Virus record (IMG/VR): IMGVR_UViG_2713896899_000004
Reading direction: 5' to 3' (one strand)
Source: a virus
Taxonomy: Duplodnaviria; Heunggongvirae; Uroviricota; Caudoviricetes
DNA: 38,860 nt
The notes beneath the pieces are model-generated. The model saw nothing but the letters and a program-made list of their open reading frames with translations, made no database searches and had not been told where the DNA came from. Position numbers and translations under genes: made by a program. The stretch's first letter is position 1. Each line of letters starts with the position of its first letter. Shown piece by piece: positions 14,247 through 38,790 of this stretch.

Positions 14247-14321
14247 GATGGTGTAGCTCAGCGGTAGAGCAGTTGGCTGTTAACCAACTGGTCGGTGGTT
14301 CGAATCCACCCACCATCGCCA
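14247..14321 (+). tRNA. tRNA-Asn (anticodon GTT)
   Basis: Hand-folded cloverleaf: 7-bp acceptor gatggtg/caccatc, anticodon loop ctGTTaa, T-loop ttcgaat, 3' CCA encoded; differs from the E. coli tRNA-Asn sequence. Confidence 0.8.
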
Positions 14322-14323
14322 AT

Positions 14324-14399
14324 GCCGGTTTAGCTCAGTTGGTAGAGCGCCTGCCTTGTAAGCAGGATGTCAGCGGTTCGAGTCCGTTAACCGGCACCA
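14324..14399 (+). tRNA. tRNA-Thr (anticodon TGT)
   Basis: Acceptor gccggtt/aaccggc, D-arm gctcagttggtagagc, anticodon loop ctTGTaa, T-loop ttcgagt, CCA encoded. Confidence 0.8.
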
Positions 14400-14623
14400 A
14401 TACAACGATAAGATCATTACGGTTAATCGTCGTTCATGTGCACAATGACTGGTCGAAAGGTAGTGATCTTACCGTTGTGGTGGATTCGCAGACTGATGCG
14501 ATAGCTTTCTTGGATGTTAGGGAAATGCGGCCGCAAATCTTCCCTTTCGCGAGCGGTGATCGTCCGTAGTCCTAATTGGCTGCACCGTATGCCGGAGATT
14601 CAGTACCGGCCACCACAACGGCC

Positions 14624-14710
14624 GGAGAGTAGGGAGCATGGTGCTCAAGCGGTCTTGAAAACCGCCCCATTGCGCAAGCGATGATGGTTCGATTCCATTA
14701 CTCTCCGCCA
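14624..14710 (+). tRNA. tRNA-Ser (anticodon TGA), class II with long variable arm
   Basis: Acceptor ggagagt/actctcc, anticodon stem-loop gcggt-ctTGAaa-accgc, long variable arm, T-loop ttcgatt, CCA encoded; D-arm slightly irregular. Confidence 0.65.
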
Positions 14711-18843: not shown

Positions 18844-20952
18844 ATGTCTAAAAAACGTTCCATCAAAGAGGTTCAGGACTTCCGTGACAGTGTAAAACGA
18901 GTAGTCGCTCTCCTTTCAGGTAAAAACATCCCTGTTGCAGAACGAGGGGACGACGCTTATGTACGCTATAACGATGATGGAGAGCCAATTCTCGTAAACA
19001 TCCCATCAATCCCGGATAACGCAACACCGGCATTGATGAATGCTGTGCGCGGATTTCTCGATCATGAGGTTGCTCACATTTTGTTTACCGATATTCGTGT
19101 GTCCAACAAAATGAGAGAAAAAGGACGCGTTCCTTCCTGGTCGCTATGGAATGCCTTAGAAGACGTGTTCATCGAGCGAAAAATGGGGCAGGTCTTTAAC
19201 GGAACAAGACGTAATCTGATGGCAACTCAGCGCCTTATAATCGAAAAAGTCTTTAAACCAAAGGCTTCAGAGGCTATTGCTTATTGTGGCAAAGATCAGC
19301 GCGCGCTTTTTCTAAACTTCTTTCTCTGTCCGGTTGTAAGAGCCTGGGATGGCCAAGCACCGTTCGTAGATTTCATGGATGAATATTGGCCTGTCATTGA
19401 GAAACCAATTTCATTATTAAAAGAACATGGTATCGATGTGGCCGTGCGTAACATGTCTTGCACCGAGGATTGTGTAAAGGTGGCTGCGACCATAGCTAAG
19501 CTCCTCAAAGACACTGAAAGTGAAAGCAAAGGTAAGGAGTCAGCTCCGGGAAAAACTTCTGATCCTTCAGACGCTGACCAGACGGATGCCTCTGGAGAAA
19601 ACAATGAAGACAACGAAGATCATGAGACACCCTCAGAGATAGATAATCACAAATCTATCAAATCAGAATCACATAGTAAGCACAAGCATGATAATAACGA
19701 CAGTGATGATTCAGATAATTCTGAATCATCAGAAACAATATTCGATGATACAGAAAATGATAAAGAGGTATCAGATTCTGATGCTTCTGATAACGCGGCG
19801 TCAGAATCATTAACCGCTGACCACGAAAAAAGAAAAACGACAGAAGACGGCTCTTCAGATATTCCAACTCCGTCAAAAATGAGTCTGGAAGAGGCTTTAG
19901 AGGAGCTGGATAGCATAGAAGATGAAGTCGGAGGCATGACAGAAGATGCTCTATCCGAAACGATTAAAAGCGAGTTAACAGAAAGCTCGAAAAGCGAATA
20001 CAGGCCATACAATCGCTCATACGACTTCATCGGCTCGATTGATCAGGCAGAAGCCCATATCAAACGGCTTATTAAAACATTCTCCGATATTGATTTAGGA
20101 GGATATCCAATCAGCCGCTATCGCATCGTTCCTGAAGGCAACCAGCTCTTCGACAAATATATTGAAAAGCATCTTTCGTCAGGTGTTTCGTCGACGCTAG
20201 CAAAAGACCTGGAACGTGCAATAGCAAGCAGAAACAGAGTTCAGTTTATACCGGGCCAGCGTCGGGGGCGCATTCATGGCTCTAGTATCTACAGATTAGC
20301 AATGAATGATGATCGCGTGTTTCGTAAAAAAGAGGAATCTAAAGCCGTTAACGCCTGTGTTCAACAAGTGATTGATTTATCGGGTTCAATGAGTGGCGAA
20401 ACGATAAAACTAGCTCTTGCAAGTGCATATACCATCGCCGATGCTCTTGATCGAATAAATGTTCCCAACATTATCACCGGCTTCACTACATTTGGCAGTC
20501 ATCTGGCAGCGATAGAACTTAAGGCTATCAAGTATGAGTTCTCTCGCTTTGAATCTTTAATGCTACCTATCATCAAAAATTGGAATGAAAAAGCAAATTC
20601 TCGCGAAGTTCGCTCACGTATGGGGTGCGTAGGCTACACATTCCCACTTCTTAATAACGTGGATGGTGAAAGCATAGCCAGCCTTGCATCGTTATTTTCC
20701 GGTCGCATGGAGGACAGGAAGATCATGCTTGTTCTGAGCGATGGCGAGCCGCTGGCTGTTGGGAGAGGTTTTGACGCTCATTTGCGTTCGGTTGCGAAGC
20801 AAATTGAAACGCAGACTGACATTGATTTGATGGCAATTGGCATAATGACTGACGCACCGGAGAGATTTTACTCAAATCATGCCCTGGTAACGAGCGTTGA
20901 TAGTCTTGGTTCATCTGTAGTTACTGAACTATCTCGTATCATTTTGAAGTGA
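18844..20952 (+). CDS. von Willebrand factor A (vWA) domain protein with acidic Ser/Asp-rich linker (CobT-like)
   Basis: MIDAS motif DLSGSMSGE and downstream VLSDGEP; long acidic low-complexity segment in the middle; RBS aaaggatt upstream. Confidence 0.6.
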   Translation: MSKKRSIKEVQDFRDSVKRVVALLSGKNIPVAERGDDAYVRYNDDGEPILVNIPSIPDNATPALMNAVRGFLDHEVAHILFTDIRVSNKMREKGRVPSWSLWNALEDVFIERKMGQVFNGTRRNLMATQRLIIEKVFKPKASEAIAYCGKDQRALFLNFFLCPVVRAWDGQAPFVDFMDEYWPVIEKPISLLKEHGIDVAVRNMSCTEDCVKVAATIAKLLKDTESESKGKESAPGKTSDPSDADQTDASGENNEDNEDHETPSEIDNHKSIKSESHSKHKHDNNDSDDSDNSESSETIFDDTENDKEVSDSDASDNAASESLTADHEKRKTTEDGSSDIPTPSKMSLEEALEELDSIEDEVGGMTEDALSETIKSELTESSKSEYRPYNRSYDFIGSIDQAEAHIKRLIKTFSDIDLGGYPISRYRIVPEGNQLFDKYIEKHLSSGVSSTLAKDLERAIASRNRVQFIPGQRRGRIHGSSIYRLAMNDDRVFRKKEESKAVNACVQQVIDLSGSMSGETIKLALASAYTIADALDRINVPNIITGFTTFGSHLAAIELKAIKYEFSRFESLMLPIIKNWNEKANSREVRSRMGCVGYTFPLLNNVDGESIASLASLFSGRMEDRKIMLVLSDGEPLAVGRGFDAHLRSVAKQIETQTDIDLMAIGIMTDAPERFYSNHALVTSVDSLGSSVVTELSRIILK

Positions 20953-20967
20953 ATAAAACAGCCTTAA

Positions 20968-20986
20968 CGATAAGTAACTACTTATG
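20968..20986. promoter_or_regulatory. Dyad gataagta-ac-tacttat upstream of the AAA+ ATPase gene
   Basis: 7-bp arms ataagta / tacttat are exact reverse complements. Confidence 0.45.
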
Positions 20987-21047
20987 ATGGTTAATGATAT
21001 ATTTATATAAGAAGTTGAACGCTCATTAGAGAACAAAGGAAAAACGC

Positions 21048-22283
21048 ATGACTACTACTGCACTGCAAAATGAAAAAAATCCTTCTGATTACCTTGTTTG
21101 CAAGTGGTGCGGAAAATCATTTCACTATTTTAAGTCCCATGTAGCCTATGGTAATTGCGAGGGCATTCCTGAGTCGGTAAAAGATGCCGATCCTGACACC
21201 GTACTGAAAATGTACACAACGCAGTTTCCAGATGAACCAACGCTATCGAAAAAGGCACTTGATGCAATTCAAGCTAAACGTGCCGAGCAAAAAAGCGAAA
21301 TGGCCAAATCTTCTGGTGTGACCAGTAGCCCAGGCTACATAGGCACAGTTGAGTACAAGACAGATCTGGTCGCAGCTCACGAACTGCTAGACGTAACGGT
21401 GGAAGAACTCGGAACAAAACGTGGGACGCCGCTCATGGTTAGCGTCAACGTCAATACGCCGTTTCCAGAGTTCGTTCCTGAAGTGAAGAAGGGCTACGTA
21501 TATGGCGACTTCGAACTGATCAAAGACATTTTCATGATGCTTGAACTTGGCATACCAGGCTATTTGTGGGGACATGCAGGAACAGGCAAATCGTCATTGC
21601 CTACACAGCTATGTGCTTTGCTCAATCGTCCGTTGATCCGTGCCCAACATACAGCATCAATGGAAGAAGCTCATGTTACGGGTCAAATTCTGGCGCGTGA
21701 TGGCTCTACGTATTTCGAGCCAGGCTTGCTTGCGCTCGCAATGAAGCATGGCTGGGTTTACCTCGCGGATGAATACGACTTTGCGTTTCCACAAATTCTT
21801 GGCGTGTATCAGCCAGTGCTGGAAGGTGAAGCGTTGGTCATCAAAGAGGCGACACCAGAATGGCGTCGCATTACTCCGCATAAACGGTTTGCTTTTATTG
21901 GCACTGGCAACACGAACGGATCTGGTGATGAAACCGGCTTGTACCAGGGTACAAACATCCAGAACGCCGCGAACTTTTCGCGTTTTGGCATCGTTTCGAA
22001 TGTGAAATACATGAGCAAAGAGGCAGAGATCAACATGTTGATAAATGCCGGCATTGTGGATGAGTACGCTGAAAAGATGGTTAAGTTTGCCGGTATCGTT
22101 CGCGATGGTTACGAAGAACACAATATCAGCCAACCGATTGGGCCTCGTGAGCTTTTGTTGTCGGCCAAGATTGGAATGATGCGAGGCGACTTTGTGACAG
22201 GTATTGAGCGTTCTTTCATTAACAAACTCCCTTCAGCTTCTGCGCAAGCGGCACGTGAAGTTGTTCAAAAAATATTTGGTTAA
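21048..22283 (+). CDS. AAA+ ATPase (MoxR/CobS-like) with N-terminal Cys/His zinc-finger-like motif
   Basis: Walker A GHAGTGKSS, Walker B VYLADEYDFA; N-terminal CKWCGKSFHYFKSH...C; paired with the upstream vWA protein. Confidence 0.6.
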   Translation: MTTTALQNEKNPSDYLVCKWCGKSFHYFKSHVAYGNCEGIPESVKDADPDTVLKMYTTQFPDEPTLSKKALDAIQAKRAEQKSEMAKSSGVTSSPGYIGTVEYKTDLVAAHELLDVTVEELGTKRGTPLMVSVNVNTPFPEFVPEVKKGYVYGDFELIKDIFMMLELGIPGYLWGHAGTGKSSLPTQLCALLNRPLIRAQHTASMEEAHVTGQILARDGSTYFEPGLLALAMKHGWVYLADEYDFAFPQILGVYQPVLEGEALVIKEATPEWRRITPHKRFAFIGTGNTNGSGDETGLYQGTNIQNAANFSRFGIVSNVKYMSKEAEINMLINAGIVDEYAEKMVKFAGIVRDGYEEHNISQPIGPRELLLSAKIGMMRGDFVTGIERSFINKLPSASAQAAREVVQKIFG

Positions 22284-22463: not shown

Positions 22464-25400
22464 ATGAAGGCACTGATGGTTCGAACTGACTTCTCACTTG
22501 GGGAGTCGGCTCTAAAAGCAGAAAACGCGGTGAAGATTGCCAGAGAAGCTGGCTACACCGCTGTAATTTCAGCAGATAGCATGAATATTGCGAGTGTTAT
22601 TCCACTACAACGTGCCGCTGGTGACGACATGGCGGTTATTTGTGGTGTGAAACTAAACATCGTTGATGATCCCACATACGAGCACCGGGCTAAACTTGCT
22701 AAAGAATCTAAGGGATGTATGGAATCATTAGAGCGAGGACGTAACTACTCGTTTACCGCTCTAATTAAAAATGAGCAAGGATATCGCGACATCTGCGAAC
22801 TAATGACGGTGGCCAACACACGAGAACAGTTCTACTTTGTACCGCGTCTCTCGCTCGAACAGTTGGTTTCTACATATGCCAAAGGCAACATCATCCTGCT
22901 CACTTCCGACATCGGTAGCGTGTTCCAACGCAACGATTTTGCAAAAATCATAAGCACACTGATTACAGCGGGTGGAAAAGACAACTTCTATAGTGTGGTT
23001 TATCCGCACCCTACCCCATTCTACGACCAGATTAACGTCCGGGCGATGAAAGTCGCCAGCGCACTGAAAATAGAGCCAGTAGCGTTCTATCCCGCTTATT
23101 ACGAATCGATCGACGATGCAGACATTAAAGACATTGCGCACATGGTTACGAACAACATCAAAATCGACCAGCCGCATCGTCTGCGTATCCCCCACCAGCG
23201 AGATAACGCCGTCAATGGTCGCCGCCATCTCCTTGAGGCGCTGAAAGCCTTCTCCGTTCGCATGGATGTGCCGGTAACAGCTGCAATGGCCTCAACAACG
23301 CAGGATACCATTATCGATGCCTGCACATGGCGCTGGCATGAATTGCCACCAGCACTGCCAAAGATGGCAGACGACGAGCCTGCAACGCTGATGAAACTGG
23401 CCGTTGCTGGGCTGCGTAAACGTCTTACCACAAAAGAGTTTGGCTACACACCACCGGCTTCTGAGAACAGGATTTATGTTGAACGGCTTAAGTACGAAAT
23501 GGACACGCTGACTCGCCTGGGATTTTGTGGTTACTTCCTGATGGTACGCGATCTGATGAATCACAGCCGTGAAACTGGCATTCCTGTCGGGCCTGGTCGT
23601 GGTTCCTCTGCCGGTTCTCTGGTGGCGTGGTGCATAGGCATAACCAACGTCGACCCAATCCGTCACGGTCTTCTGTTTGAGCGTTTCATCAACCCTGAGC
23701 GTCTCGACTTGCCGGATGCGGACTTGGACTTCAGCCAGGCACGTCGCCATGAGGTGATCGAGTATCTGAATGAACGCTACGGCGAAGATTACGTTGCAGG
23801 CATTCCGAACTTCACCTACCTGGGCGCAGCCTCTGCACTACGTGACACCGCTCGTATTTATGGTGTGGAGTCCGCAGATATGGCGGTATCAAAAGAACTG
23901 AAGAACGTCGAGGATGATAGCCTTCCATTGGAAGAACTGCGCGAACAACTGGCAAGTCTCGACAAATACGCAACAAAATATCCTGATGCATTCAATGCAG
24001 CCTGCAAGTTACAAAGCCTTATGCGTGGCTTTGGTAGACATGCGGCAGGGATGATCGTAGCAGGTGTTCCTCTGACAGAACGCACACCGGTTGAGCGCCG
24101 TGGTGACGCGCGTTGTATCGCATTTGACAAGCGTTACTGCGAGGCTATGGGCCTAATTAAGCTGGACGTGCTTGGCCTGGCAACTCTCGATTTGCTCGAT
24201 AGTGCAAAACGCTACATAAAAGAGAACACAGGTGAAGATATCAATCTTGATGCCATTTCTCTTGAGGATCGCAAGGTGCTGGATGGTTTTGCTGCTGGGT
24301 ACACTCAAGGTGTTTTCCAGCTTGAATCAGGCCCAATGCGCAAGCTGCTTAAAGATTTAGGTGGTGGAATTGAGCCAATGAGCTTTAAAACGGTTGTTGC
24401 TACGACTGCGCTCTTCCGGCCGGGGCCAATTCAGTCAGGCATGTTGGATGATTATGTTTCTGTCGCCAAAGGCTTTATGACGCCGGAATCATTACACCCC
24501 GTTCTTGATGAACTTACCGCAGAAACAAATGGCGTGATTCTCTATCAGGAACAGACGATGAACGCGACTCGATTGCTTGCTGGCTTCACAATGGCTGAAG
24601 CTGACGGTGTTCGTAAAGCGATCGGCAAAAAAGACATGGAAAAAATGAAGAGCATGGGCGAGAAGTTCATCGTTCAGGCTCAAGCTGGCTGGATAGACGT
24701 TGAGCTGGAAGATGGCACTACACAGCGCATTCACCGTGCGGAACATTTTAAATGCGAAGACGGAACTCTGAAAACTGTCGAAGAGGCACTTGAGTACGGC
24801 GCAAAACTACCTATAAACGCAGTACGCGTTACAGCGTCACATCCAGGGCTATCAGAGATGAAAGCGAAGGAGATCTGGACCGCATTCGAAAAGAATGGTG
24901 CCTACCAGTTCAACAAATCACACTCTGTTGCTTACTCCTTAATCAGTTATCAATCTATGTGGTTGAAAACTCATTATCCCGCAGAGTTTTTCGCTGCTGC
25001 TCTCACTATTCTTGGCGAAGATAAACACCAGGGGCTGGTTAAAGATGCGCTGACCTATGGTATTCGCGTATTGCCACCAGACGTTAACGTGTCATCTAAC
25101 CGAATCGAGATCCGCACGCTTGAAGATGGCAGCCAGGTGCTGTATGCGCCCTTCTCTGCTGTGAAAGGTTGTTCTGAGAATGGCTGCCAGGCCATCATGA
25201 GAGCGCGAGAAAAAGTTGGCGGCAAATTCGAGTCACTGGCGCAATTCGAAGAAGCTGTCGAGAAACGTGCCTGTAATAGTCGAGTGTGCGAATCACTGCA
25301 AAAAGTAGGGGCGTTTGCATCCATCGAGCCAGGTAGTCTGCCAGCAACTGATCCAGAGCGTCTCCGCGACCAAGCTGAATTGATGGGAAACCTTGTCATA

Positions 25401-25982
25401 GACGCAGTTAAAGCCTCACGTCCGTTTGAGATGAACCCCAAACGTTCGGCTGAGATTAACGTGCTCATGACACGGATGGCGGCTGAAATGGGATTAGGTG
25501 ATGAACTAATCCGCCCTAGCATTGGCATTAAGCCGAAAATCATGATCATTCTGGACAATGCAAACGGCAATGATGCTCGAACCGGTTACTTTATGGAGAA
25601 CGGATACGACGATTTTAAGGCCAAGCTGTTGACGGCTGGGGATTTGCGCATGGGCGATCTCTATGTCACAGGCGTTTGCAAAAAGGTGAAAGACAAAGAA
25701 AAGGACTACACCAAAGACGAGATCGGCCAGTTCACCGACTTTATGCGTGAAGAGATCAATCTGGTGCGCCCGACCTATGTGCTGACGTGTGGCAGCCGGG
25801 CAACGGCATTGTTTAACAACAAAAACAAGCCATCCGATTTGGTCGGCAGGAAGGAGTACCTTCCAGACCTTGACGTTACTGTCTTTTACGGGTTTAACCC
25901 CAACATTCTTTACTTCAGACCTGAAGAGGGAGAACGACTAGAAGCGATATTAGCCGACGTAGCAGAAACCATTAAGACGTGA
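22464..25982 (+). CDS. dnaE: DNA polymerase III alpha subunit (family C, DnaE type)
   Basis: 1172 aa; GPGRGSSAGSLVAWCIGITNVDPI ... FERFINPERLDLPDADLDF matches the DnaE palm/catalytic region; PHP-like N-terminus. Confidence 0.8.
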   Translation: MKALMVRTDFSLGESALKAENAVKIAREAGYTAVISADSMNIASVIPLQRAAGDDMAVICGVKLNIVDDPTYEHRAKLAKESKGCMESLERGRNYSFTALIKNEQGYRDICELMTVANTREQFYFVPRLSLEQLVSTYAKGNIILLTSDIGSVFQRNDFAKIISTLITAGGKDNFYSVVYPHPTPFYDQINVRAMKVASALKIEPVAFYPAYYESIDDADIKDIAHMVTNNIKIDQPHRLRIPHQRDNAVNGRRHLLEALKAFSVRMDVPVTAAMASTTQDTIIDACTWRWHELPPALPKMADDEPATLMKLAVAGLRKRLTTKEFGYTPPASENRIYVERLKYEMDTLTRLGFCGYFLMVRDLMNHSRETGIPVGPGRGSSAGSLVAWCIGITNVDPIRHGLLFERFINPERLDLPDADLDFSQARRHEVIEYLNERYGEDYVAGIPNFTYLGAASALRDTARIYGVESADMAVSKELKNVEDDSLPLEELREQLASLDKYATKYPDAFNAACKLQSLMRGFGRHAAGMIVAGVPLTERTPVERRGDARCIAFDKRYCEAMGLIKLDVLGLATLDLLDSAKRYIKENTGEDINLDAISLEDRKVLDGFAAGYTQGVFQLESGPMRKLLKDLGGGIEPMSFKTVVATTALFRPGPIQSGMLDDYVSVAKGFMTPESLHPVLDELTAETNGVILYQEQTMNATRLLAGFTMAEADGVRKAIGKKDMEKMKSMGEKFIVQAQAGWIDVELEDGTTQRIHRAEHFKCEDGTLKTVEEALEYGAKLPINAVRVTASHPGLSEMKAKEIWTAFEKNGAYQFNKSHSVAYSLISYQSMWLKTHYPAEFFAAALTILGEDKHQGLVKDALTYGIRVLPPDVNVSSNRIEIRTLEDGSQVLYAPFSAVKGCSENGCQAIMRAREKVGGKFESLAQFEEAVEKRACNSRVCESLQKVGAFASIEPGSLPATDPERLRDQAELMGNLVIDAVKASRPFEMNPKRSAEINVLMTRMAAEMGLGDELIRPSIGIKPKIMIILDNANGNDARTGYFMENGYDDFKAKLLTAGDLRMGDLYVTGVCKKVKDKEKDYTKDEIGQFTDFMREEINLVRPTYVLTCGSRATALFNNKNKPSDLVGRKEYLPDLDVTVFYGFNPNILYFRPEEGERLEAILADVAETIKT

Positions 25983-25988
25983 TCCCAT

Positions 25989-26014
25989 AAACATGGCCTC
26001 TATGGCCATGTTTT
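25989..26014 (+). terminator. Rho-independent terminator after dnaE
   Basis: Perfect 10-bp stem aaacatggcc / ggccatgttt with loop tctat, followed by TTTT. Confidence 0.6.
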
Positions 26015-26107
26015 CCCTTATCCCCTCATATCCCCTATCCTCGAACTCCTTGCCTTATCATCACAATGATATAATCAATATAAAATGATAAGTAAAAAGG
26101 AAAGCAC

Positions 26108-26539
26108 ATGATCACCGATATTTACGAGAAAATAATGTCTGATCTCGAGTTTGACCGAGACAATCTGGAGGAAGTCTGGCGTAGACAACCCCGCCTTTTA
26201 ATGGAGTATGGCTCAAAACTCGCTCATGCAGAAAGAAGTGTCGCAGAGGCAAAACTTAACCTTGAAGCTGTTGAAGCAAAGCTATACGACACAGAGCGTA
26301 AGAACTTGAGTATGAACGGCATTAAGTTCAACGAGTCTGTACTGGACGCTAAGGTTAAAACAAACCCACAGTATCTGTCTAAACGGCAGAAGTTGGATGA
26401 AGCACGGCACATCGCAGACATATACAAACATGCTGTCGCCGCCTTTTCGCATCGCCGAGACATGATCGTTCAGGCGTCGAAGATGGCCATCGTTGAGTTA
26501 GATCGATTAGGCTCTGAACGCTTTATTACTCCCCGTTGA
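26108..26539 (+). CDS. Hypothetical coiled-coil protein (possible UvsY-like recombination mediator)
   Basis: 143 aa; loose pattern resemblance to T4 UvsY and position beside SSB and recombinase genes; weak. Confidence 0.35.
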   Translation: MITDIYEKIMSDLEFDRDNLEEVWRRQPRLLMEYGSKLAHAERSVAEAKLNLEAVEAKLYDTERKNLSMNGIKFNESVLDAKVKTNPQYLSKRQKLDEARHIADIYKHAVAAFSHRRDMIVQASKMAIVELDRLGSERFITPR

Positions 26540-26544
26540 TTTTT

Positions 26545-26575
26545 GATAGATAATAAGTAAGTACTGATCTATCAT
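26545..26575. promoter_or_regulatory. Dyad tgatagat-aataagtaagtactg-atctatca upstream of the SSB gene
   Basis: 8-bp outer arms are exact reverse complements; inner ataagtaagtact core. Confidence 0.45.
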
Positions 26576-26656
26576 TTAACAGCTCGAAAGAGCCACGAAT
26601 GAACGAAAGCCCAACGCGCATAGCGCCATCGGCCAAATCACAACAAGGAGAAACAC

Positions 26657-27679
26657 ATGTCTAAGACATTACTTGATTTGCTTAACAAAACTCGTGAAGA
26701 CATTGCCGCCAAACGTGGCAAAAACACTGATTTGACCCGCTTAAAAGACGGCATCAACTATATCCGCATCTTCCCTAATAAAGACGACCCGAATGGTAAG
26801 TTCTTCCAGACTTTTGGTATGCACTACATTAAGTATCAGAACGAGGAAGGTAAAGAAGCAACCAATGCTTATATTTGTGAGCAACATACTCACGGTCGCG
26901 CTTGTCAGCTATGCGAAATGGTGATGGAAGGTCGCGCTCGTCACAAGGGTAACAAAGCAATGGAAGAGCGCATCGGTCAAATGCGTGCAACCCCTCGCTA
27001 CCTGGTAAACGGCATTCTTTCAACTCGTGAGGATTTCTCCGATGCAGAGAAATGTCAGTTAATCGAACTGCCTTCCACTGTGTTCGATGATATCTGCAAA
27101 GCAATCACCGAAGACATCGCTGACGATATCGGCAATCCATTAAGCAAAGAGGAAGGTTACGCATTTCAAATTAAGCGCACAGGCTCTGGTCGCGATACAG
27201 AATATGACGTTTCACCAAAACGTAAAGTCTTCAAAGGTGATATCGAAGATAAATTCTGGAACAACCAACATGACCTGATTGCTTATGTGAATCAGGCCGA
27301 TGAAACTCGCCTTCTTGCGACAGTTCGCACTATGGGTCGTCTGATTGGCATCGCTGCACCAACTGCCACTGCATCGGCACCAGCAATTTCCTCAACAGCG
27401 AAAACATCGGCCTCTGCACTGCCTGGATTTGGCTCGATCACTGGTCATACGGAAGGAGCGACGGCTGTAGCAACCGCCCACACTCCAGCTTCTGAACCAA
27501 CCAGTCTGGTTGATGAAGAAGTCCTGCGAGCAATGGAATCTGAATTTAAATCAGAAACAAGTTCTGCTGCCGCATCAGCCAAAGAGTCTGAAGCAGACGC
27601 AACGACATCTGTAGCAGCCGCATCTGCGGCGGAAGATGAAGGTATTGATGACCTGCTGAAAGAACTGGAGTCTCTGTAA
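26657..27679 (+). CDS. Putative ssDNA-binding protein (gp32-like) with Ala/Ser/Thr-rich linker and acidic C-terminal tail
   Basis: Cys/His cluster (CEQHTHGRACQLC), flexible low-complexity linker and acidic tail EDEGIDDLLKELESL typical of SSB C-termini. Confidence 0.45.
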   Translation: MSKTLLDLLNKTREDIAAKRGKNTDLTRLKDGINYIRIFPNKDDPNGKFFQTFGMHYIKYQNEEGKEATNAYICEQHTHGRACQLCEMVMEGRARHKGNKAMEERIGQMRATPRYLVNGILSTREDFSDAEKCQLIELPSTVFDDICKAITEDIADDIGNPLSKEEGYAFQIKRTGSGRDTEYDVSPKRKVFKGDIEDKFWNNQHDLIAYVNQADETRLLATVRTMGRLIGIAAPTATASAPAISSTAKTSASALPGFGSITGHTEGATAVATAHTPASEPTSLVDEEVLRAMESEFKSETSSAAASAKESEADATTSVAAASAAEDEGIDDLLKELESL

Positions 27680-27688
27680 TCCCATTAC

Positions 27689-28684
27689 GTGACCAGTAAG
27701 GCGTCTACGGACGCCTTACTTTTTGGAAGGAATGTACCGGTGAATTATCTCTTCGTAGATGGCAATAGCCTGGGTTATTACCACCAACAATCTGACAAAT
27801 TGCACAACGGCGAAATGGAAGTACAGGCTGCTTTCGGCTTTGTTAAGAACGTCCGTCGTTATGCCTCCATCCTCCATGCCCGACCTATGATTCTTTGGGA
27901 TGGATTTAGTGACAAGCGTCGCGACTTTTACCCGGACTACAAAGCAAATCGCGACGACGATCCTGATATGAAAAAGATGAAGGAAGGCTTTGCTGTCCAG
28001 AAGCCATACATCCTCAAAATGATGACCGCGCTTGGTGTTAACCAAATCATTGCAAAAGATGCAGAAGCGGATGATCTGGCCGGGCTGCTGGTATCCCGCA
28101 TGGCACCGCAGCCAACCGTTGAACACATCTATCTGTTAACAGGCGATAGCGACTGGCTTCAGTTAGTTCGCGAAAACGTAAGCTGGGTAAGCCTGCGTGA
28201 AGACGCCAAAAACAAGCAGGTTAATTTTGAGCAATTTGCGGAGCTGACAGGATTCGCCACGCCTCGCGCATTTTTGGAAGCAAAAGCATTACAAGGCGAT
28301 AACTCGGACAACATTAGCGGTGTTGGTGGCATTGGTGCTGGCGGCGCGAAAGAGCTGCTGCATGAATGGGGAAGTGTCGCAACGATGGTACGCGGCATCA
28401 ACGACGGCTCAATCGTGGTTAATAAAGGGCGTCATAAGACCGCCTTCAACAAACTAGCGAAGAATGCCTTCAACGAGAAAACAGGCTGTCGAATGCTCGA
28501 AGCGTTCAAGAGAAACATCACGCTAATGAACCTGATTGAGACGAAGTTTCCGCCTACCGAAATCGAAACAATCAAAGGCAATCGTGACGTGAAAGCATTC
28601 GAGCAACTGTGCTATGAGCTGAATTTCCGTTCGTTCCTTGAAGACCTTGAAGTGTTTGTTCTTCCATTCGAAAGGTATTGCTAA
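27689..28684 (+). CDS. 5'-3' exonuclease / flap endonuclease (FEN family)
   Basis: LFVDGNSLGYY near the N-terminus, GDSDWLQL and a helix-hairpin-helix segment LQGDNSDNISGVGGIGAGGAKELL; start may be GTG 27740. Confidence 0.7.
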   Translation: MTSKASTDALLFGRNVPVNYLFVDGNSLGYYHQQSDKLHNGEMEVQAAFGFVKNVRRYASILHARPMILWDGFSDKRRDFYPDYKANRDDDPDMKKMKEGFAVQKPYILKMMTALGVNQIIAKDAEADDLAGLLVSRMAPQPTVEHIYLLTGDSDWLQLVRENVSWVSLREDAKNKQVNFEQFAELTGFATPRAFLEAKALQGDNSDNISGVGGIGAGGAKELLHEWGSVATMVRGINDGSIVVNKGRHKTAFNKLAKNAFNEKTGCRMLEAFKRNITLMNLIETKFPPTEIETIKGNRDVKAFEQLCYELNFRSFLEDLEVFVLPFERYC

Positions 28685-28950
28685 TGCTTAAATCGATTAT
28701 TAATGGCGCTACCACCACCCCTACCCAACTGGCAAAAGAGATTGTCTTTTATCACGGTGAGTACGCTGTCATCGCACTGCCGTCAATTCTAGGCGCTGCC
28801 GGAATGAGAGCGACAGATCGCGAGTTTGGATTAGTCAGCGAGCAGGTCGTAAAAATCCTCGCTCGTGTATCCAAACACCTTAACCACGATGCGATTGTAT
28901 TCGACGAATCCGCCGCTTTAAAACGAATCAACAAAACAAAAGGAGCCTGA
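28678..28950 (+). CDS. Hypothetical protein
   Basis: 90-aa ORF filling the gap between exonuclease and recombinase genes. Confidence 0.4.
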   Translation: MLMLKSIINGATTTPTQLAKEIVFYHGEYAVIALPSILGAAGMRATDREFGLVSEQVVKILARVSKHLNHDAIVFDESAALKRINKTKGA

Positions 28951-28952
28951 TC

Positions 28953-30026
28953 ATGGCAAAAGGAAAATCCGCACTGGCACTTGCTCTGAAAAAGAAAATC
29001 GGTAGCAACGACGAAATTCAGAAAGTAACCCATTGGATTGACACAGGCTTTCCTCCGTTAAACAAAGCTATTTCAGGTCGTTACGATGGCGGTTTCCCAT
29101 GTGGTCGTATCGTAGAAGTATTCGGGCCGCCAAGCGCGGGGAAAACCTTTTTGGCAACAGCAGCAATGATCTCCGCTCAGAAACAAGATGGTCTGGCGGT
29201 ATTCCTCGATCATGAGAACAGTTTTGACGTTGGCCTGGCGGTAGCCAATGGCCTGAATGCAGATGAGGATGACGGCCAGTGGGTATACAAGCAGCCTGAT
29301 ACCTTCGAAGACTCTGTAGAGTTGATCGGCACAATACTTAAATTGGTACGTGATGAAGAGCTTATCCCTGAATCAGCACCTATCTGTATCGTGGCTGACT
29401 CACTTGCGTCTATGGTTCCGAACTCCAAAGCCGAGAAGTTCGAAAAGATGGCTGAAGGCACTGCCAAAGACAAAGATCAGCTAAACATGAACGACAATAC
29501 GGCGCTTGCTCGTGCGACGAGCGCGAACTTCCCCACTCTGTCTTTGTGGGCACGCAAATATAACGCCTGCATCATCTTCTTGAATCAGGTTCGCACAAAA
29601 ATCGGTGTAATGTTTGGCGACCCTACGACGTCACCAGGCGGCGATTCACCGAAGTTTTACGCTTCTGTGCGCATCCGTCTCGGTGCATCGGTGATGAAGG
29701 ATGGTAAAGAGAAGATCGGTCAGGACGTAGGCGCAGAGTGCATCAAAAACAAAGTTGCACCACCGTATGGCAAATGCACCTGGAAATTCTACTTCGATCC
29801 TACTCGTGGCCTCGACGTTATCGAATCGCTCGTCGAGTACATGCTGGATGAAGGATACCTGCCAAAGAACGCCAGCGGGCGCGTAGAAATTGGTGACAAG
29901 AAATACACCAAATCACAGATCGTCGAGATGTATCGGGAGAAGCCACTAGCTGAAATCATTGCGGCTTTACAGGCAATCGACGACCGGAGATCAAAAGACA
30001 ATCCCACCGAGTCAGTAGAAGAGTAA
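28953..30026 (+). CDS. RecA/UvsX-family recombinase
   Basis: Walker A GPPSAGKTFLA; FLNQVRTKIGVMFGDPTTSPGGDSPKFYASVRIRLG closely parallels the RecA loop L2 region; RBS aaaggag. Confidence 0.75.
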   Translation: MAKGKSALALALKKKIGSNDEIQKVTHWIDTGFPPLNKAISGRYDGGFPCGRIVEVFGPPSAGKTFLATAAMISAQKQDGLAVFLDHENSFDVGLAVANGLNADEDDGQWVYKQPDTFEDSVELIGTILKLVRDEELIPESAPICIVADSLASMVPNSKAEKFEKMAEGTAKDKDQLNMNDNTALARATSANFPTLSLWARKYNACIIFLNQVRTKIGVMFGDPTTSPGGDSPKFYASVRIRLGASVMKDGKEKIGQDVGAECIKNKVAPPYGKCTWKFYFDPTRGLDVIESLVEYMLDEGYLPKNASGRVEIGDKKYTKSQIVEMYREKPLAEIIAALQAIDDRRSKDNPTESVEE

Positions 30027-30031
30027 ACACA

Positions 30032-30056
30032 AGGCGTCCACAGGACGCCTTTTTTA
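30032..30056 (+). terminator. Rho-independent terminator
   Basis: aggcgtcc-aca-ggacgcct followed by TTTTTT. Confidence 0.7.
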
Positions 30057-30070
30057 TCTCTTGAAAATAT

Positions 30071-30090
30071 ATAAGTACTTACTTATCATT
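30071..30090. promoter_or_regulatory. Dyad ataagta-ct-tacttatcatt, about 30 nt upstream of ORF 30119
   Basis: Shares the 14-mer tacttacttatcat with 13473-13486; TTGAAA lies just upstream. Confidence 0.5.
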
Positions 30091-30118
30091 TTCGCATAAC
30101 AACCACATAGGAAAACAC

Positions 30119-31248: not shown

Positions 31249-32073
31249 ATGCCCAACCACATTACAAACGAAATCCGAGTCATAGGTGGTACAAATAAAC
31301 AACGCTTAGATTTCATACGTGCCATAACTAACAAAAAAGGTCTAATTGACTTTAATACCATTTGCAGACGTCCGAAAAGTATAGAAATGGAAGAAAACAA
31401 TCATATCAGGCGCATGGCCTCTGCAATGGCGGGCGAAACAGTTTACGACTACATGTTCGGTGAATTAAAGACTCCAGAGCAGGTCGAATTAGCTATGCGT
31501 GAATCAGGAATGACACGCAAGGAAATTCGCAAAATCAAAGAGCAGGCTCTTATGCGGCTTGAGAATTATCGTCGCTATGGCTATTACTCGTGGTTTGACT
31601 GGTCGCGAGCTAATTGGGGAACAAAATGGAATGCCTACAACATCGAAATGCCCGTAAAACGTATCCCTACACGTATTAAGTACGGCCATAATTTCCGCCA
31701 TACACACGTTCGAGCATATGCAAAACGAATCTATAAAAAACGTCTTGCAAGACATGCCGCAACTGGTGGTGAGTTGGTGATTCGCTTTGAAACAGCCTGG
31801 TCTATGCCAAAACCAATTTATCAAGCGATGGCTAGAAAGTTCCCGCACCTTGAGTTTGTAATACGTTATGCAGACGAAGACTTCGGCAATAACTGCGGAT
31901 TCATTTTACTTCGCAACGGCAAATGGGAATATGACTACATTGCACCGGCGAATAACGAACAATCGTCAGAAGAAAAAATCAAATGGCGCAAGTTCGCCTT
32001 TGAGTTATGTTGTCCGGGTATTACTCCACAAGAATACGGTCTAAATGAAGAATACGAATACGCCGGATATTAA
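31249..32073 (+). CDS. Hypothetical protein
   Basis: 274-aa ORF, basic, Trp/Tyr-rich; no motif recognised. Confidence 0.5.
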   Translation: MPNHITNEIRVIGGTNKQRLDFIRAITNKKGLIDFNTICRRPKSIEMEENNHIRRMASAMAGETVYDYMFGELKTPEQVELAMRESGMTRKEIRKIKEQALMRLENYRRYGYYSWFDWSRANWGTKWNAYNIEMPVKRIPTRIKYGHNFRHTHVRAYAKRIYKKRLARHAATGGELVIRFETAWSMPKPIYQAMARKFPHLEFVIRYADEDFGNNCGFILLRNGKWEYDYIAPANNEQSSEEKIKWRKFAFELCCPGITPQEYGLNEEYEYAGY

Positions 32074-34898: not shown

Positions 34899-35432
34899 CA
34901 CCGCTGACAGCATACACAATCAACTGCCGCTGATAGCATATCGAGAGTCTATCTCACCGCTCACAGCATACTTTACTCGATTTTTTACCGCTGACAGCAT
35001 ACTTAAGACATTGCATGAATAATGTGTACCGGTATGGGTATAACCAGAACAAAATTACCGCTGGCAGCATACGAAGGTCTGACATATGCCATTAATTACC
35101 GCTGATAGCATATCCAAACAAAAATTCCTCAATAAAACACCGCAGACAGCATACGTTCTATCAGGGAGCAGCAGGCAATAAATGCCTTTCACTACAAGCA
35201 ATCAGCGCAATAGCAATAGAATGTTAGTGAGCGCAAACCTATATGGAATGCACTCTTCGAGGTTAGTAACCACTGGGGAGGTATGACAGAGCATTGAGTG
35301 GTGATAGATGATTTACCGCTCACAGCATACGTTCATCTCACTAGACCGCTGGTAGCATATCTTTAACCGTTCACAGCATACTTTTCAGAAAAATAGCCGC
35401 TGATAGCATACATTTCACCGCTGACAGCATAT
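34899..35432. repeat. Iteron array, about 12 copies of a 17-bp repeat (consensus yACCGCTGACAGCATAC), downstream of rep (copy-control, incA-like)
   Basis: Copies read at 34899, 34924, 34955, 34986, 35056, 35097, 35138, 35314, 35344, 35365, 35395 and 35416, in both orientations with irregular spacing. Confidence 0.8.
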
Positions 35433-36526
35433 CAAAGCAGTTTGAGACTATTGGAAAGGATCTCAATCATCTTGATATTTTCAGGCGTCAAATTCTGCGA
35501 AAGTTCAGTTATCTTGTTGATAATGTTCTGTTTAGCATCAATTTCCCCGGCTTTCTCATCTGGTTTTTTGGGTTCGATGTCTTCAGGTTTTGGCGGTGCG
35601 ACTTTAAGTTTTGGATTGCGGCTATGAATCTGGATATAGATCGACCGCCCTCGCTTAATCTCGCTGTATTCGAGATAGCCCAAATCTTGGAGAGCTTTTA
35701 AGCCGTTACGTATAGTCTGATTCTGCGAGCTTACATTCCTGCTACTCAAATTGAGTCGCGCACGCAATCGAGCAAGCGATACCGGCGCAGGCTTGGTTGG
35801 AAGACTTTCGATGAAGGTGTACAGAGCCTGTGCTGTTTCTTTGCGTGGTAGCTTATTGATAACCTTTAACTGCAAAAGAACCTTATGGTCAAAGCGATAT
35901 AGTTCGGCCAGCTTCGGTTCTGCATAGAACACCACCGTATCTTTCTGCTCGTTGTAGTCCACGCTATTGATGAGGTGCACCATCAGAAGCGAGATCTTGT
36001 TAGAGCCGTCGACGTTCTTTTCTTCATACGTTCTCTGGAAAGACAGAGTTGTACGCATGATCTTCAAAAGACTGTTTGTAAGCCGGTCGCGGAGTGTTTT
36101 GCGGATCTGTGACGATGGATAGCCACAAAACTTCGCAAATTTCGTGATGCTTAACTCGACACGACCGTTAGGTTCGCCGTATTCTGCCAGCGAACGCACA
36201 ACGCCCACCCACGTTTTGAAATCATGATCCATGTCGAGACGAGGACCGGTTATCTTGATATCGGAATAGCCTTCAGAACGGGCTACTTCGAGCTGAACAA
36301 GCTCCTTTGAAGCATCGATCTCATTTGGCTTGTTACGCTTGCTGTATTTTGTCCCCTTGAGCGTGGGCACGAACAACCCCAGCCGCATCAACGCAATTGG
36401 TTGGACTGTATTGTTGCTATTAGGGACAAGTTCCCCTGTGTACAATTCAAGGGAACCTTCTTCAAAGTTGTCGAGATTATCTTCTACTTCTTTGTTATTT
36501 TTACCTTTTTTATTTTTTGTGGACAT
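35432..36526 (-). CDS. Iteron-binding replication initiator (Rep, plasmid RepA-like)
   Basis: Gene sits between two iteron arrays. Start set at internal ATG (36526) with RBS aaagg, because the track's 40-aa N-terminal extension reads through iterons. Basic protein, Arg/Leu-rich C-terminus. Confidence 0.6.
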   Translation of the reverse strand: MSTKNKKGKNNKEVEDNLDNFEEGSLELYTGELVPNSNNTVQPIALMRLGLFVPTLKGTKYSKRNKPNEIDASKELVQLEVARSEGYSDIKITGPRLDMDHDFKTWVGVVRSLAEYGEPNGRVELSITKFAKFCGYPSSQIRKTLRDRLTNSLLKIMRTTLSFQRTYEEKNVDGSNKISLLMVHLINSVDYNEQKDTVVFYAEPKLAELYRFDHKVLLQLKVINKLPRKETAQALYTFIESLPTKPAPVSLARLRARLNLSSRNVSSQNQTIRNGLKALQDLGYLEYSEIKRGRSIYIQIHSRNPKLKVAPPKPEDIEPKKPDEKAGEIDAKQNIINKITELSQNLTPENIKMIEILSNSLKLL

Positions 36527-36545
36527 GTGGACACCTTTGTCATTC

Positions 36546-36648
36546 AACCGCTGACAGCATACTTGATTTGCCGCTGGCAGCATACCAAAAACAGTTGGCA
36601 GCATACGGCGAACCGTTGACAGACTATCAATTACCGCTGGCAGCATAC
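36546..36648. repeat. Iteron array, 4-5 copies of the same 17-bp repeat, upstream of rep (origin iterons)
   Basis: Copies at 36546, 36569, 36592 (degenerate), 36611 (degenerate) and 36632. Confidence 0.75.
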
Positions 36649-37746: not shown

Positions 37747-38790
37747 ATGACTTTGCCATACGGCGTCATTTCTGACTGCCACTACCACAAATGGGATGCG
37801 TTCTCCACGACGAACGCTGAGGGGCTTAACTCCAGACTTGAAATACAGTTGGAAGCAACGAAAGAAGCAGCCATCGCCATGAAGAAGGCCGGTTGTAAGT
37901 ACATGTTGGTTGCCGGTGATACATTTCACGTCCGAGGAACTGTGTCCCCTTCTGTTTTGCATTACGTAACTGAAACGTACAAGTGGATTATCAACGAGCT
38001 TGATCTGACAGTAGTAATGCTGGCCGGTAATCACGATCTTGAAACCAACGATTCAGTATATAGCGCCAACGCAGCAGCATCGCTGAGTTCTATCGGCGTG
38101 GTAATCGTATGTGGCAAGCGCCCACACTCAATAAAAATTGGTGATGTGACTGTCCACCTGATTAGCTGGCGTAACAATCATGCGGAGCTTATCAGCGATC
38201 TGAAAGCATTACGTAAGAGCGTAGAAGGTGATAATCATGACGTTGTTATCCATACATCCATTAACAAAGCCATTCCAACAATGCCTGACGTCGGTATCGA
38301 TGCGCAGGAGTTAAAGGATATCGGCTTTCGTCTCGTGCTTAGTGGGCATTACCACAACCACAAAGAGGTCATTCCTGGAGTTATCAGTGTCGGTGCGCTG
38401 ACCCATCAAAATTGGGGAGATGTTGGATCTCTGGCTGGTTACATGATCGTAAACCCGGACGGCAGTTTCAGTCACTACGAAACCAGTGCGCCTAAATTCA
38501 TTAACCTGGAAGATTATGTTGCCGATGACCAAATTCGCGGCAACTACGTGCGTTTCCGCGCCGTAATTGAGAACGATGAAGAAGGCATTAAGTACCAGAA
38601 TATCCTCAAAACAATGGGCGCAAAAGGTGTCGTGTGCAACTTCATCCGTAAGTCATCAATGATGGAAGGGACAGCAAGCACAACGGAAACCAGCAAAATC
38701 GATAGCTTGGGAGAGTCGGTATCTGCTTATTGCAAGATTGTCCACGATACTGACGGCGGATTTGATCTGAGCAAGTTGGATATTTTGTAG
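37747..38790 (+). CDS. Calcineurin-like metallophosphoesterase (SbcD/Mre11-like nuclease family)
   Basis: Phosphoesterase motifs in order: DCHYH, AGDTFH, AGNHD, SGHYHNH; conserved aaaggaaaaacacATG start; stop codon lies inside the right TIR. Confidence 0.6.
   Translation: MTLPYGVISDCHYHKWDAFSTTNAEGLNSRLEIQLEATKEAAIAMKKAGCKYMLVAGDTFHVRGTVSPSVLHYVTETYKWIINELDLTVVMLAGNHDLETNDSVYSANAAASLSSIGVVIVCGKRPHSIKIGDVTVHLISWRNNHAELISDLKALRKSVEGDNHDVVIHTSINKAIPTMPDVGIDAQELKDIGFRLVLSGHYHNHKEVIPGVISVGALTHQNWGDVGSLAGYMIVNPDGSFSHYETSAPKFINLEDYVADDQIRGNYVRFRAVIENDEEGIKYQNILKTMGAKGVVCNFIRKSSMMEGTASTTETSKIDSLGESVSAYCKIVHDTDGGFDLSKLDIL

Follow-up and report, generated by a model that had tools for sequence, protein, structure and literature searches.

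A replication-recombination block in an SSU5-type phage-plasmid

The DNA analyzed here, IMG/VR record IMGVR_UViG_2713896899_000004, is a stretch of 38,860 nucleotides (nt), called the window below, from an SSU5-type phage-plasmid of Escherichia coli. This element is both a temperate siphovirus and a plasmid. The original prediction, made from the letters alone, had claimed five consecutive open reading frames (ORFs) on the plus strand, and all of them were present: 26108-26539 (143 amino acids, aa), 26657-27679 (340 aa), 27689-28684 (331 aa), 28678-28950 (90 aa), and 28953-30026 (357 aa). These are mechanical ORFs, and some of the starts are revised below. The five are genuine genes rather than chance ORFs: each has conserved homologues, and the four large ones are kept in order. 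Minus-strand ORFs in the region, none longer than 136 aa and each wholly inside plus-strand genes, were treated as non-coding.

Along the plus strand, the block consists of a terminator, a UvsY-like gene, a 117-nt leader, a gp32-type gene for a single-stranded-DNA-binding protein (SSB), a gap of 60 nt that includes an attenuator hairpin, a coupled group of a flap endonuclease (FEN) gene, orf88, and recA, and a closing terminator. FEN and orf88 overlap by 1 nt, and orf88 and recA are 2 nt apart. Since the block directly follows a gene for a DnaE-type DNA polymerase III alpha subunit (22464-25982, plus strand, 1172 aa), replication-recombination block is a better name for it than recombination module.

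Across region 26000-30100, E. coli plasmid NZ_CP048306.1 has 100% identity to the window, and the block is matched by 776 plasmids in PLSDB (Klebsiella, Escherichia, Enterobacter, Yersinia, and Salmonella). Nucleotide identity is about 95-96% to Escherichia phages CMS-2020a, PhiR41_1, and Cyrano (OV696614) and about 80% to Salmonella phage SSU5. Cyrano itself is 94.7% identical across the aligned 96% of the query.

A candidate mediator with the UvsY fold

The first gene of the block (26108-26539, plus strand) encodes an all-helical 143-aa protein, for which the original prediction had made a weak call of UvsY-like mediator. Its AF2 model, a monomer built from a 19-sequence alignment, had a pLDDT of 90.9 and helices at residues 2-13, 20-69, 76-84, and 87-139. 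When this model was compared to the PDB with Foldseek, the top 19 matches were all T4 UvsY (TMq 0.74-0.80, TMt up to 0.93, root-mean-square deviation 1.2-3.1 Å), bearing out the call, and the best match other than UvsY had a TM of only 0.32. The UvsY-matching fold spans the full length of the protein. The UvsY family is represented by Pfam PF11056 and, for the T4 protein, by PDB entries 4ZWQ-4ZWT; its fold centers on a long helical hairpin. The T4 protein is a hexamer or heptamer.

Sequence searches were also conducted. Pfam and NCBIfam scans of the 143-aa protein gave no match, and searches of PDB sequences, with phmmer for the single sequence and with a 19-sequence profile, returned only noise. 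Among the PHROGs, the protein strongly matches phrog_2058, which is of unknown function, and matches phrog_231, a UvsY-like recombination mediator family, at 1e-4. A profile search of 1.84 billion representatives found 3450 relatives (clusters at 50% identity). With hhalign, a broad family of 51 members aligned to T4-like UvsY with 89% probability (E 2e-6) over 107 collinear columns, and the close family of the 143-aa protein aligned with 53%. Pfam UvsY was the sole Pfam family matched by more than one of the 51 members; nine had weak matches, none with a demonstrated score at the gathering threshold. R64, conserved in at least 90% of the family, is paired by hhalign with K58 of the T4 KARL motif, and T4 R60 is paired with N66. 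The KARL motif of T4 UvsY serves in binding single-stranded DNA (ssDNA) (PMC2673438).

The 143-aa gene adjoins the gp32-type SSB and RecA-type genes in the window, in 71 of 73 related loci, in distant contigs, and in Pseudomonas phage nickie (Nickievirus, NC_042091). From the predicted structure and the profile comparisons, we conclude that the protein is a distant UvsY-fold homologue and, by that family's own threshold, not a member of PF11056.

A gp32-family SSB

The second weak call of the original prediction, a gp32-like SSB, was upheld by a full-profile match. The 340-aa protein (26657-27679, plus strand) matches PF08804 at 6.3e-65, with 219.5 bits compared to a cut-off of 26.8, over profile positions 1-208 of 208. 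It also matches phrog_1192 (single strand DNA binding protein) at 7e-111. Despite the strong Pfam match, phmmer found nothing in the PDB at E ≤ 0.01 for this protein. An OB/Zn core (residues 30-230) is followed by a linker rich in Ala, Ser, and Thr (about 231-325) and an acidic C-terminal tip.

The protein was aligned with its relatives and with a T4 gp32 reference identical to PDB 8gme. The invariant residues C74, C83, and C86 align with T4 C77, C87, and C90, and H56 is conserved and lies one alignment column off T4 H64. In T4 gp32, H64, C77, C87, and C90 make up the structural Zn site. The tip, EGIDDLLKELESL (acidic part IDDLLKELESL), aligns with T4 DLDDLLNDL. The C-terminal A-domain of T4 gp32 is the contact site for UvsX, UvsY, and other partners (PMC3016280), and the T4 C-terminus also engages the Dda helicase (PMC11551737). 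By analogy, the acidic tip of the 340-aa protein is a putative protein-interaction domain.

The leader of this gene (26540-26656, plus strand) contains a weak sigma-70-like site at 26547-26575, the inverted repeat GATAGAT/ATCTATC, and an AAGGAG ribosome-binding site. A structured autoregulatory leader like that of T4 gene 32 was considered and dropped: the fold had a z of -2.05 relative to shuffles, and Rfam was blank across the region.

A recombinase of the RecA clade

The last gene of the block (28953-30026, plus strand) encodes a 357-aa recombinase. It had been called RecA/UvsX-like. The RecA part of that call stood, with a match to PF00154 at 1.7e-42 (146 bits vs. a cut-off of 27), and the UvsX part did not. 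In the PDB search, bacterial RecA proteins matched at 1e-31 to 7e-35 (110-124 bits), whereas the UvsX-type chains 9gbg and 7z3m matched at 3e-10 and 3e-9 (40-43 bits). Walker A (GPPSAGKT), Walker B (IVADS), and an L2-like segment (QVRTKIGVMFGDPTTSPGG) align with E. coli RecA. Because its TIGR02012 score of 153.2 bits is below the equivalog cut-off of 325.3, the protein is a diverged phage RecA and not an orthologue of cellular RecA.

No intein interrupts the recA allele of the window. The RecA of Cyrano has its Walker A motif divided (GPPSAGK|C...|T) by a 422-aa intein that includes a LAGLIDADG homing endonuclease. By comparison with L001:8831-11170, the equivalent site in the window is 29144|29145, between RecA codons K64 and T65. 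RecA spans more than 1.5 kilobases (kb) in 19 of 71 related IMG/VR loci, a length that would fit the same intein insertion.

A T5-like flap endonuclease and its start

The nuclease call was confirmed by matches to both Pfam domains of this class, 5_3_exonuc_N (PF02739, the N-terminal nuclease; 9.6e-25, 87.6 bits, cut-off 34.3) and 5_3_exonuc (PF01367, H3TH; 6.8e-12, 46.2 bits, cut-off 40). The best solved relative was T5 5'-exonuclease (PDB 1exn, 1.2e-14). The acidic motifs VDG, WDG, EADD, GDSDW, and GDNSDN line up with motifs of T5 exonuclease in the HMMER alignment, and T4 RNase H was not among the PDB matches. By sequence, the nuclease is T5-D15/Pol I-like rather than T4 RNase H-like.

The mechanical ORF of 331 aa begins at 27689. 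Its first 17 codons contain a hairpin, a GGAAGGA ribosome-binding site precedes a GTG at 27740, and the matching codon opens the 945-nt gene in the records of Cyrano and SSU5. Therefore, the start is most likely GTG 27740, giving a plus-strand gene at 27740-28684 and a protein of 314 aa, not 331 aa.

A conserved 88-aa protein between FEN and recA

All homologues of the 90-aa ORF begin at its third codon, and the gene is therefore placed at 28684-28950 (plus strand, 88 aa, phrog_2207). Its ATG overlaps the FEN stop by 1 nt (TAATG), and orf88 is translationally coupled to FEN. The AF2 model of the 88-aa protein is helical (pLDDT 86.8); a fold search in the PDB and BFVD found no match, and neither did searches of Pfam, NCBIfam, and PADLOC. 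All 73 SSU5-group loci have the gene; two distant viral contigs (L088 and L089) and nickie lack it. A role as a RecA regulator, similar to RecX, DinI, or PsiB, would be pure speculation.

Hairpins that delimit the block

A terminator-like hairpin lies after dnaE at 25989-26013 (plus strand), with a 10-bp stem (AAACATGGCC/GGCCATGTTT), a weak T tail, and a folding energy of -15.7 kcal/mol (z -4.6). This hairpin sets off the module as a transcription unit of its own. A conserved intrinsic terminator or attenuator, a hairpin with a T-run, is found between gp32 and FEN at 27695-27724 (plus strand), inside the mechanical 331-aa ORF. The 51-nt stretch that holds it (27685-27735) folds at -20.4 kcal/mol (z -3.95). 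This hairpin is kept in position in L001, L002, L143, and L092, and also in L089 and L088 with other stem sequences. The module is closed by an intrinsic terminator at 30031-30057 (plus strand), in which a 9-bp GC-rich stem is followed by TTTTTT (-15.6 kcal/mol, z -6.1).

The hairpins at 27698-27717 and 30031-30051, which end the gp32 and recA units, are nearly identical, with the pattern AAGGCGTC-loop-GACGCCTT. This pattern occurs exactly twice in the window, compared to 0 expected. Inspection of the intergenic regions by eye did not find a LexA box, as the CTG...CAG spacing was wrong.

Conservation of the gene order

Synteny was examined in 73 related IMG/VR contigs of the SSU5 group with enough flanking sequence. 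In 71 of these loci, the four large genes all kept their order and strand, with DnaE ahead of them and SbcD farther downstream, and dnaE precedes the module in every relative compared. In the distant contigs L088 and L089, where the UvsY-like match is only about 1e-14, the order CobT/CobS-like, DnaE, UvsY-like, gp32-like, FEN, RecA, SbcD is kept. A locus search with a distant member of the UvsY-like family (P0125) returned no viral loci. The UvsY-like and gp32-like genes are labeled hypothetical in most RefSeq plasmid records.

Neighboring genes and other features of the window

The polymerase gene upstream of the block matches DNA_pol3_alpha (8.9e-74) and the finger, HHH_6, and PHP domains in Pfam. 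The C-terminal 145 aa or so of DnaE (residues about 1027-1171; window 25542-25982) form a separate module that belongs to phrog_13175; the polymerase also matches phrog_405. The C-terminal module has a weak match to the UDG superfamily that is below threshold (E 0.026). A CobT-like (VWA) and CobS/MoxR-like (AAA_5) pair at 18844-22283 always comes before dnaE, including in nickie and the distant contigs. Between dnaE and the UvsY-like gene, the window has only 125 nt (25983-26107), whereas 49 of 65 related loci have 0.5-2.75 kb there; the site looks like a hot-spot for cargo insertion.

Downstream of the block, an SbcD/Mre11-like nuclease, the analogue of T4 gp47, is encoded at 37747-38790 (plus strand; Pfam Metallophos, 7.5e-10). 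Its gene is 7.7 kb downstream of recA in the window and about 2 kb downstream in distant relatives. A Rep3-type initiator is encoded at 35432-36646. At 31249-32073, after an SPFH/stomatin-like gene, there is a 274-aa protein with an Api92-like DUF1281_C domain; Cyrano and SSU5 have other small genes at this position. Three tRNA genes are clustered at 14247-14707. The third (14623-14707) scored 47.1 as tRNA-Sec compared to an Rfam threshold of 47, and the third clustered tRNA of Cyrano is annotated as tRNA-Ser. A reading of the region as a defense system was dropped, since PADLOC gave one marginal P-loop match (RecA) and otherwise none.

Long forms of the UvsY-like family

Many relatives of the 143-aa protein are long forms of 200-450 aa with the UvsY-like domain at the C-terminus. 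Their N-terminal extension is acidic and rich in Pro, Ala, and Glu, and in it the motif D-[DE]-L-[ED]-A-[LM]-L recurs, similar to the C-terminal tip of gp32 (DLDDLL). Examples are nickie gp100 (L167:7010-8290), L088:7932-9272, and proteins P0141, P0107, and P0110. PHROGs 2058, 1069, 4969, and 9245, which cover the UvsY-like family including the long forms, are labeled as of unknown function. In Vibrio phage 2.058.O (L007, MG592662), a 101-kb phage of non-T4-like taxa, the phage's own record annotates UvsY with PF11056, and the other genes of its block encode an OB-fold protein, a 5'-3' exonuclease, and a helicase.

It is possible, and we propose it only tentatively, that the UvsY fold is the mediator of a very large, mostly unannotated family beyond T4, which would partner with RecA-clade enzymes rather than UvsX in those siphoviruses and phage-plasmids that encode DnaE and are about 100 kb long. 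Since the long-form motifs resemble the gp32 tip, the extension might mimic or compete with the SSB tail.

A proposed role in recombination-dependent replication

The block encodes a T4-like replication-recombination set, in which a UvsY-like mediator would probably load RecA on gp32-coated ssDNA for recombination-dependent replication or repair during the lytic cycle. After induction, the gp32-like SSB would coat ssDNA at forks and at resected ends, with resection probably carried out by the element's SbcCD-like nuclease. The UvsY-like protein would bind the SSB-ssDNA complex, weaken it, and nucleate a RecA-like presynaptic filament. Strand invasion would then provide D-loops as primers for the phage replisome (DnaE polymerase, helicase, and primase), and the resulting synthesis could generate concatemers for packaging and repair broken forks, while the flap nuclease would take off RNA primers and 5' flaps.

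It is the gene content that points to recombination-dependent replication. Cyrano is also annotated with SbcD, SbcC, RuvC, a UvsW helicase, a replicative helicase, a primase, and a ligase. Since the block is joined in this lineage by the Cyrano-annotated SbcC, RuvC, UvsW, helicase, primase, and ligase, the lineage holds all the roles of T4 recombination-dependent replication (PMC3016280). In transcriptomes of Cyrano lysogens, CYRAN_52-55 were at about 7-11 normalized units compared to 141-294 for the neighboring hicAB genes (HicA 294) (PMC9928086, supplementary table). This near-background expression of the orthologues is indirectly consistent with a lytic-phase timing.

Several points weigh against the proposed role. 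Direct sequence comparison of the 143-aa protein with UvsY gave nothing significant in Pfam or the PDB, the structural alignments show 13-17% identity to T4 UvsY, and convergence can occur among long helical hairpins. T4 R60, the second basic position of the KARL motif, is not matched by a conserved residue in the family. To our knowledge, UvsY works with UvsX only, and a partnership of UvsY with RecA is without precedent. Finally, FEN and gp32 are replisome parts as much as recombination parts and could serve replication alone.

This last point leads to the strongest alternative, which we regard as unlikely: the block would be a replisome accessory set, with the SSB and the flap nuclease working for the DnaE lagging strand and with RecA and the 143-aa protein used only for occasional repair or mosaicism, so that there is no obligatory recombination-dependent replication. 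The position of the block directly after dnaE fits this explanation, as does a FEN of the T5-D15/Pol I type, which is the Okazaki-processing class. Origin-driven replication would also be available, given the element's own Rep3-type initiator and the helicase, primase, and ligase annotated in Cyrano. However, the lineage links SbcCD, RuvC, and UvsW to the block in addition to the mediator and RecA, and the same combination drives recombination-dependent replication in T4 (PMC3016280). RecA-like genes are, moreover, persistent genes of the SSU5 supercommunity (PMC7969092).

A second alternative concerns the 143-aa protein, which might be a helical-hairpin protein of another role (structural, regulatory, or a coiled-coil adaptor) with a convergent resemblance to UvsY. 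The blank Pfam and PDB sequence searches are in line with this, the Foldseek E-values are only about 2e-3 at the low identity given above, and phrog_2058 and related long forms are labeled as of unknown function. We consider it very unlikely, as the PDB match is exclusive to UvsY and full length (TMt up to 0.93 vs. a TM of 0.32 for the next fold), and it is joined by an independent collinear profile-profile match over 107 columns and by repeated sub-threshold matches to Pfam UvsY. In addition, the gene is invariably located between the polymerase gene and the SSB and RecA genes, including in distant phages. Hardly credible is a RecA acting mainly as a co-protease or sensor for cleavage of an S24/LexA-like repressor or for modulation of the host SOS response instead of in strand exchange: Cyrano does encode a LexA-like S24 peptidase (CYRAN_98) and is induced by genotoxic stress (PMC9928086), but its module orthologues are at background in lysogens, so that host RecA would be the sensor, and both the linkage to a mediator, an SSB, and nucleases and the intact ATPase and L2 DNA-binding motifs point to DNA transactions.

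SSU5-type phage-plasmids are very common in Enterobacteriaceae and can spread resistance genes. Their own RecA, mediator, and SSB would help explain the mosaicism of these elements and their replication after induction. The gene assignments were already known, as the Cyrano record names all four; the papers that our literature search retrieved do not discuss UvsY in SSU5-type elements. What is added here is structural confirmation of the UvsY assignment, corrected starts, a conserved attenuator, and a large, mostly unannotated UvsY-like family. The practical gain is better annotation of the 143-aa and 340-aa genes and of the UvsY-like family in PHROGs. Recombination specialists would gain a useful system for comparison in a UvsY-fold mediator that works with a RecA-clade enzyme, although the machinery is not new in kind.

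Comparison with known systems

The closest counterparts are in Cyrano (CYRAN_52-55) and SSU5 (gp056-060), which are the same type of element with the same genes in the same order. The Cyrano record, which was re-annotated for PMC9928086, names them UvsY recombination mediator, SSB T4 gp32-like, Exonuclease, and RecA. The RecA of Cyrano bears an intein and that of the window does not, and both Cyrano and SSU5 have opposite-strand genes between dnaE and the UvsY-like gene (the hicAB toxin-antitoxin genes in Cyrano), whereas the window has only the 125-nt gap.

Nickie shares the order cobT, cobS, dnaE, UvsY-like gene, SSB, exonuclease, and RecA, followed by SbcD, SbcC, and RuvC. Its UvsY-like protein is a 426-aa "hypothetical protein" in which residues 276-420 match the UvsY-like profile at 9e-49; this domain follows a long, acidic, low-complexity N-terminal extension. 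Unlike the window, nickie has no 88-aa gene and, in the stretch examined, no plasmid replicon between recA and sbcD.

The likeness to the UvsX-UvsY-gp32 presynaptic system of T4, with gp46/47, UvsW, and gp49, is one of functional roles. The window has a gp32-family Zn SSB whose acidic tip is of the DLDDLL type, a protein of about 16 kDa with the UvsY fold, a recombinase of the RecA superfamily, the Mre11-like SbcD, and a flap nuclease; a Rad50-like SbcC, a UvsW-like helicase, and a junction resolvase are annotated in Cyrano. In contrast to T4, the recombinase of the window is of the RecA clade and not UvsX, the polymerase is DnaE-type and not family B, the mediator, at 13-17% identity, has diverged beyond the reach of Pfam UvsY, and the nuclease is T5-D15/Pol I-like. 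The genes are also clustered in one block in the window, whereas their T4 counterparts are scattered.

The bacterial RecA-SSB-RecFOR system is similar in that a RecA-clade recombinase needs a mediator for loading onto SSB-coated ssDNA, and the window protein closely resembles E. coli RecA in its ATPase core and L2 loop. It differs in the partners of the recombinase: the SSB of the window is gp32-type rather than a homotetrameric OB SSB, and the candidate mediator has the UvsY fold rather than being RecO or RecR.

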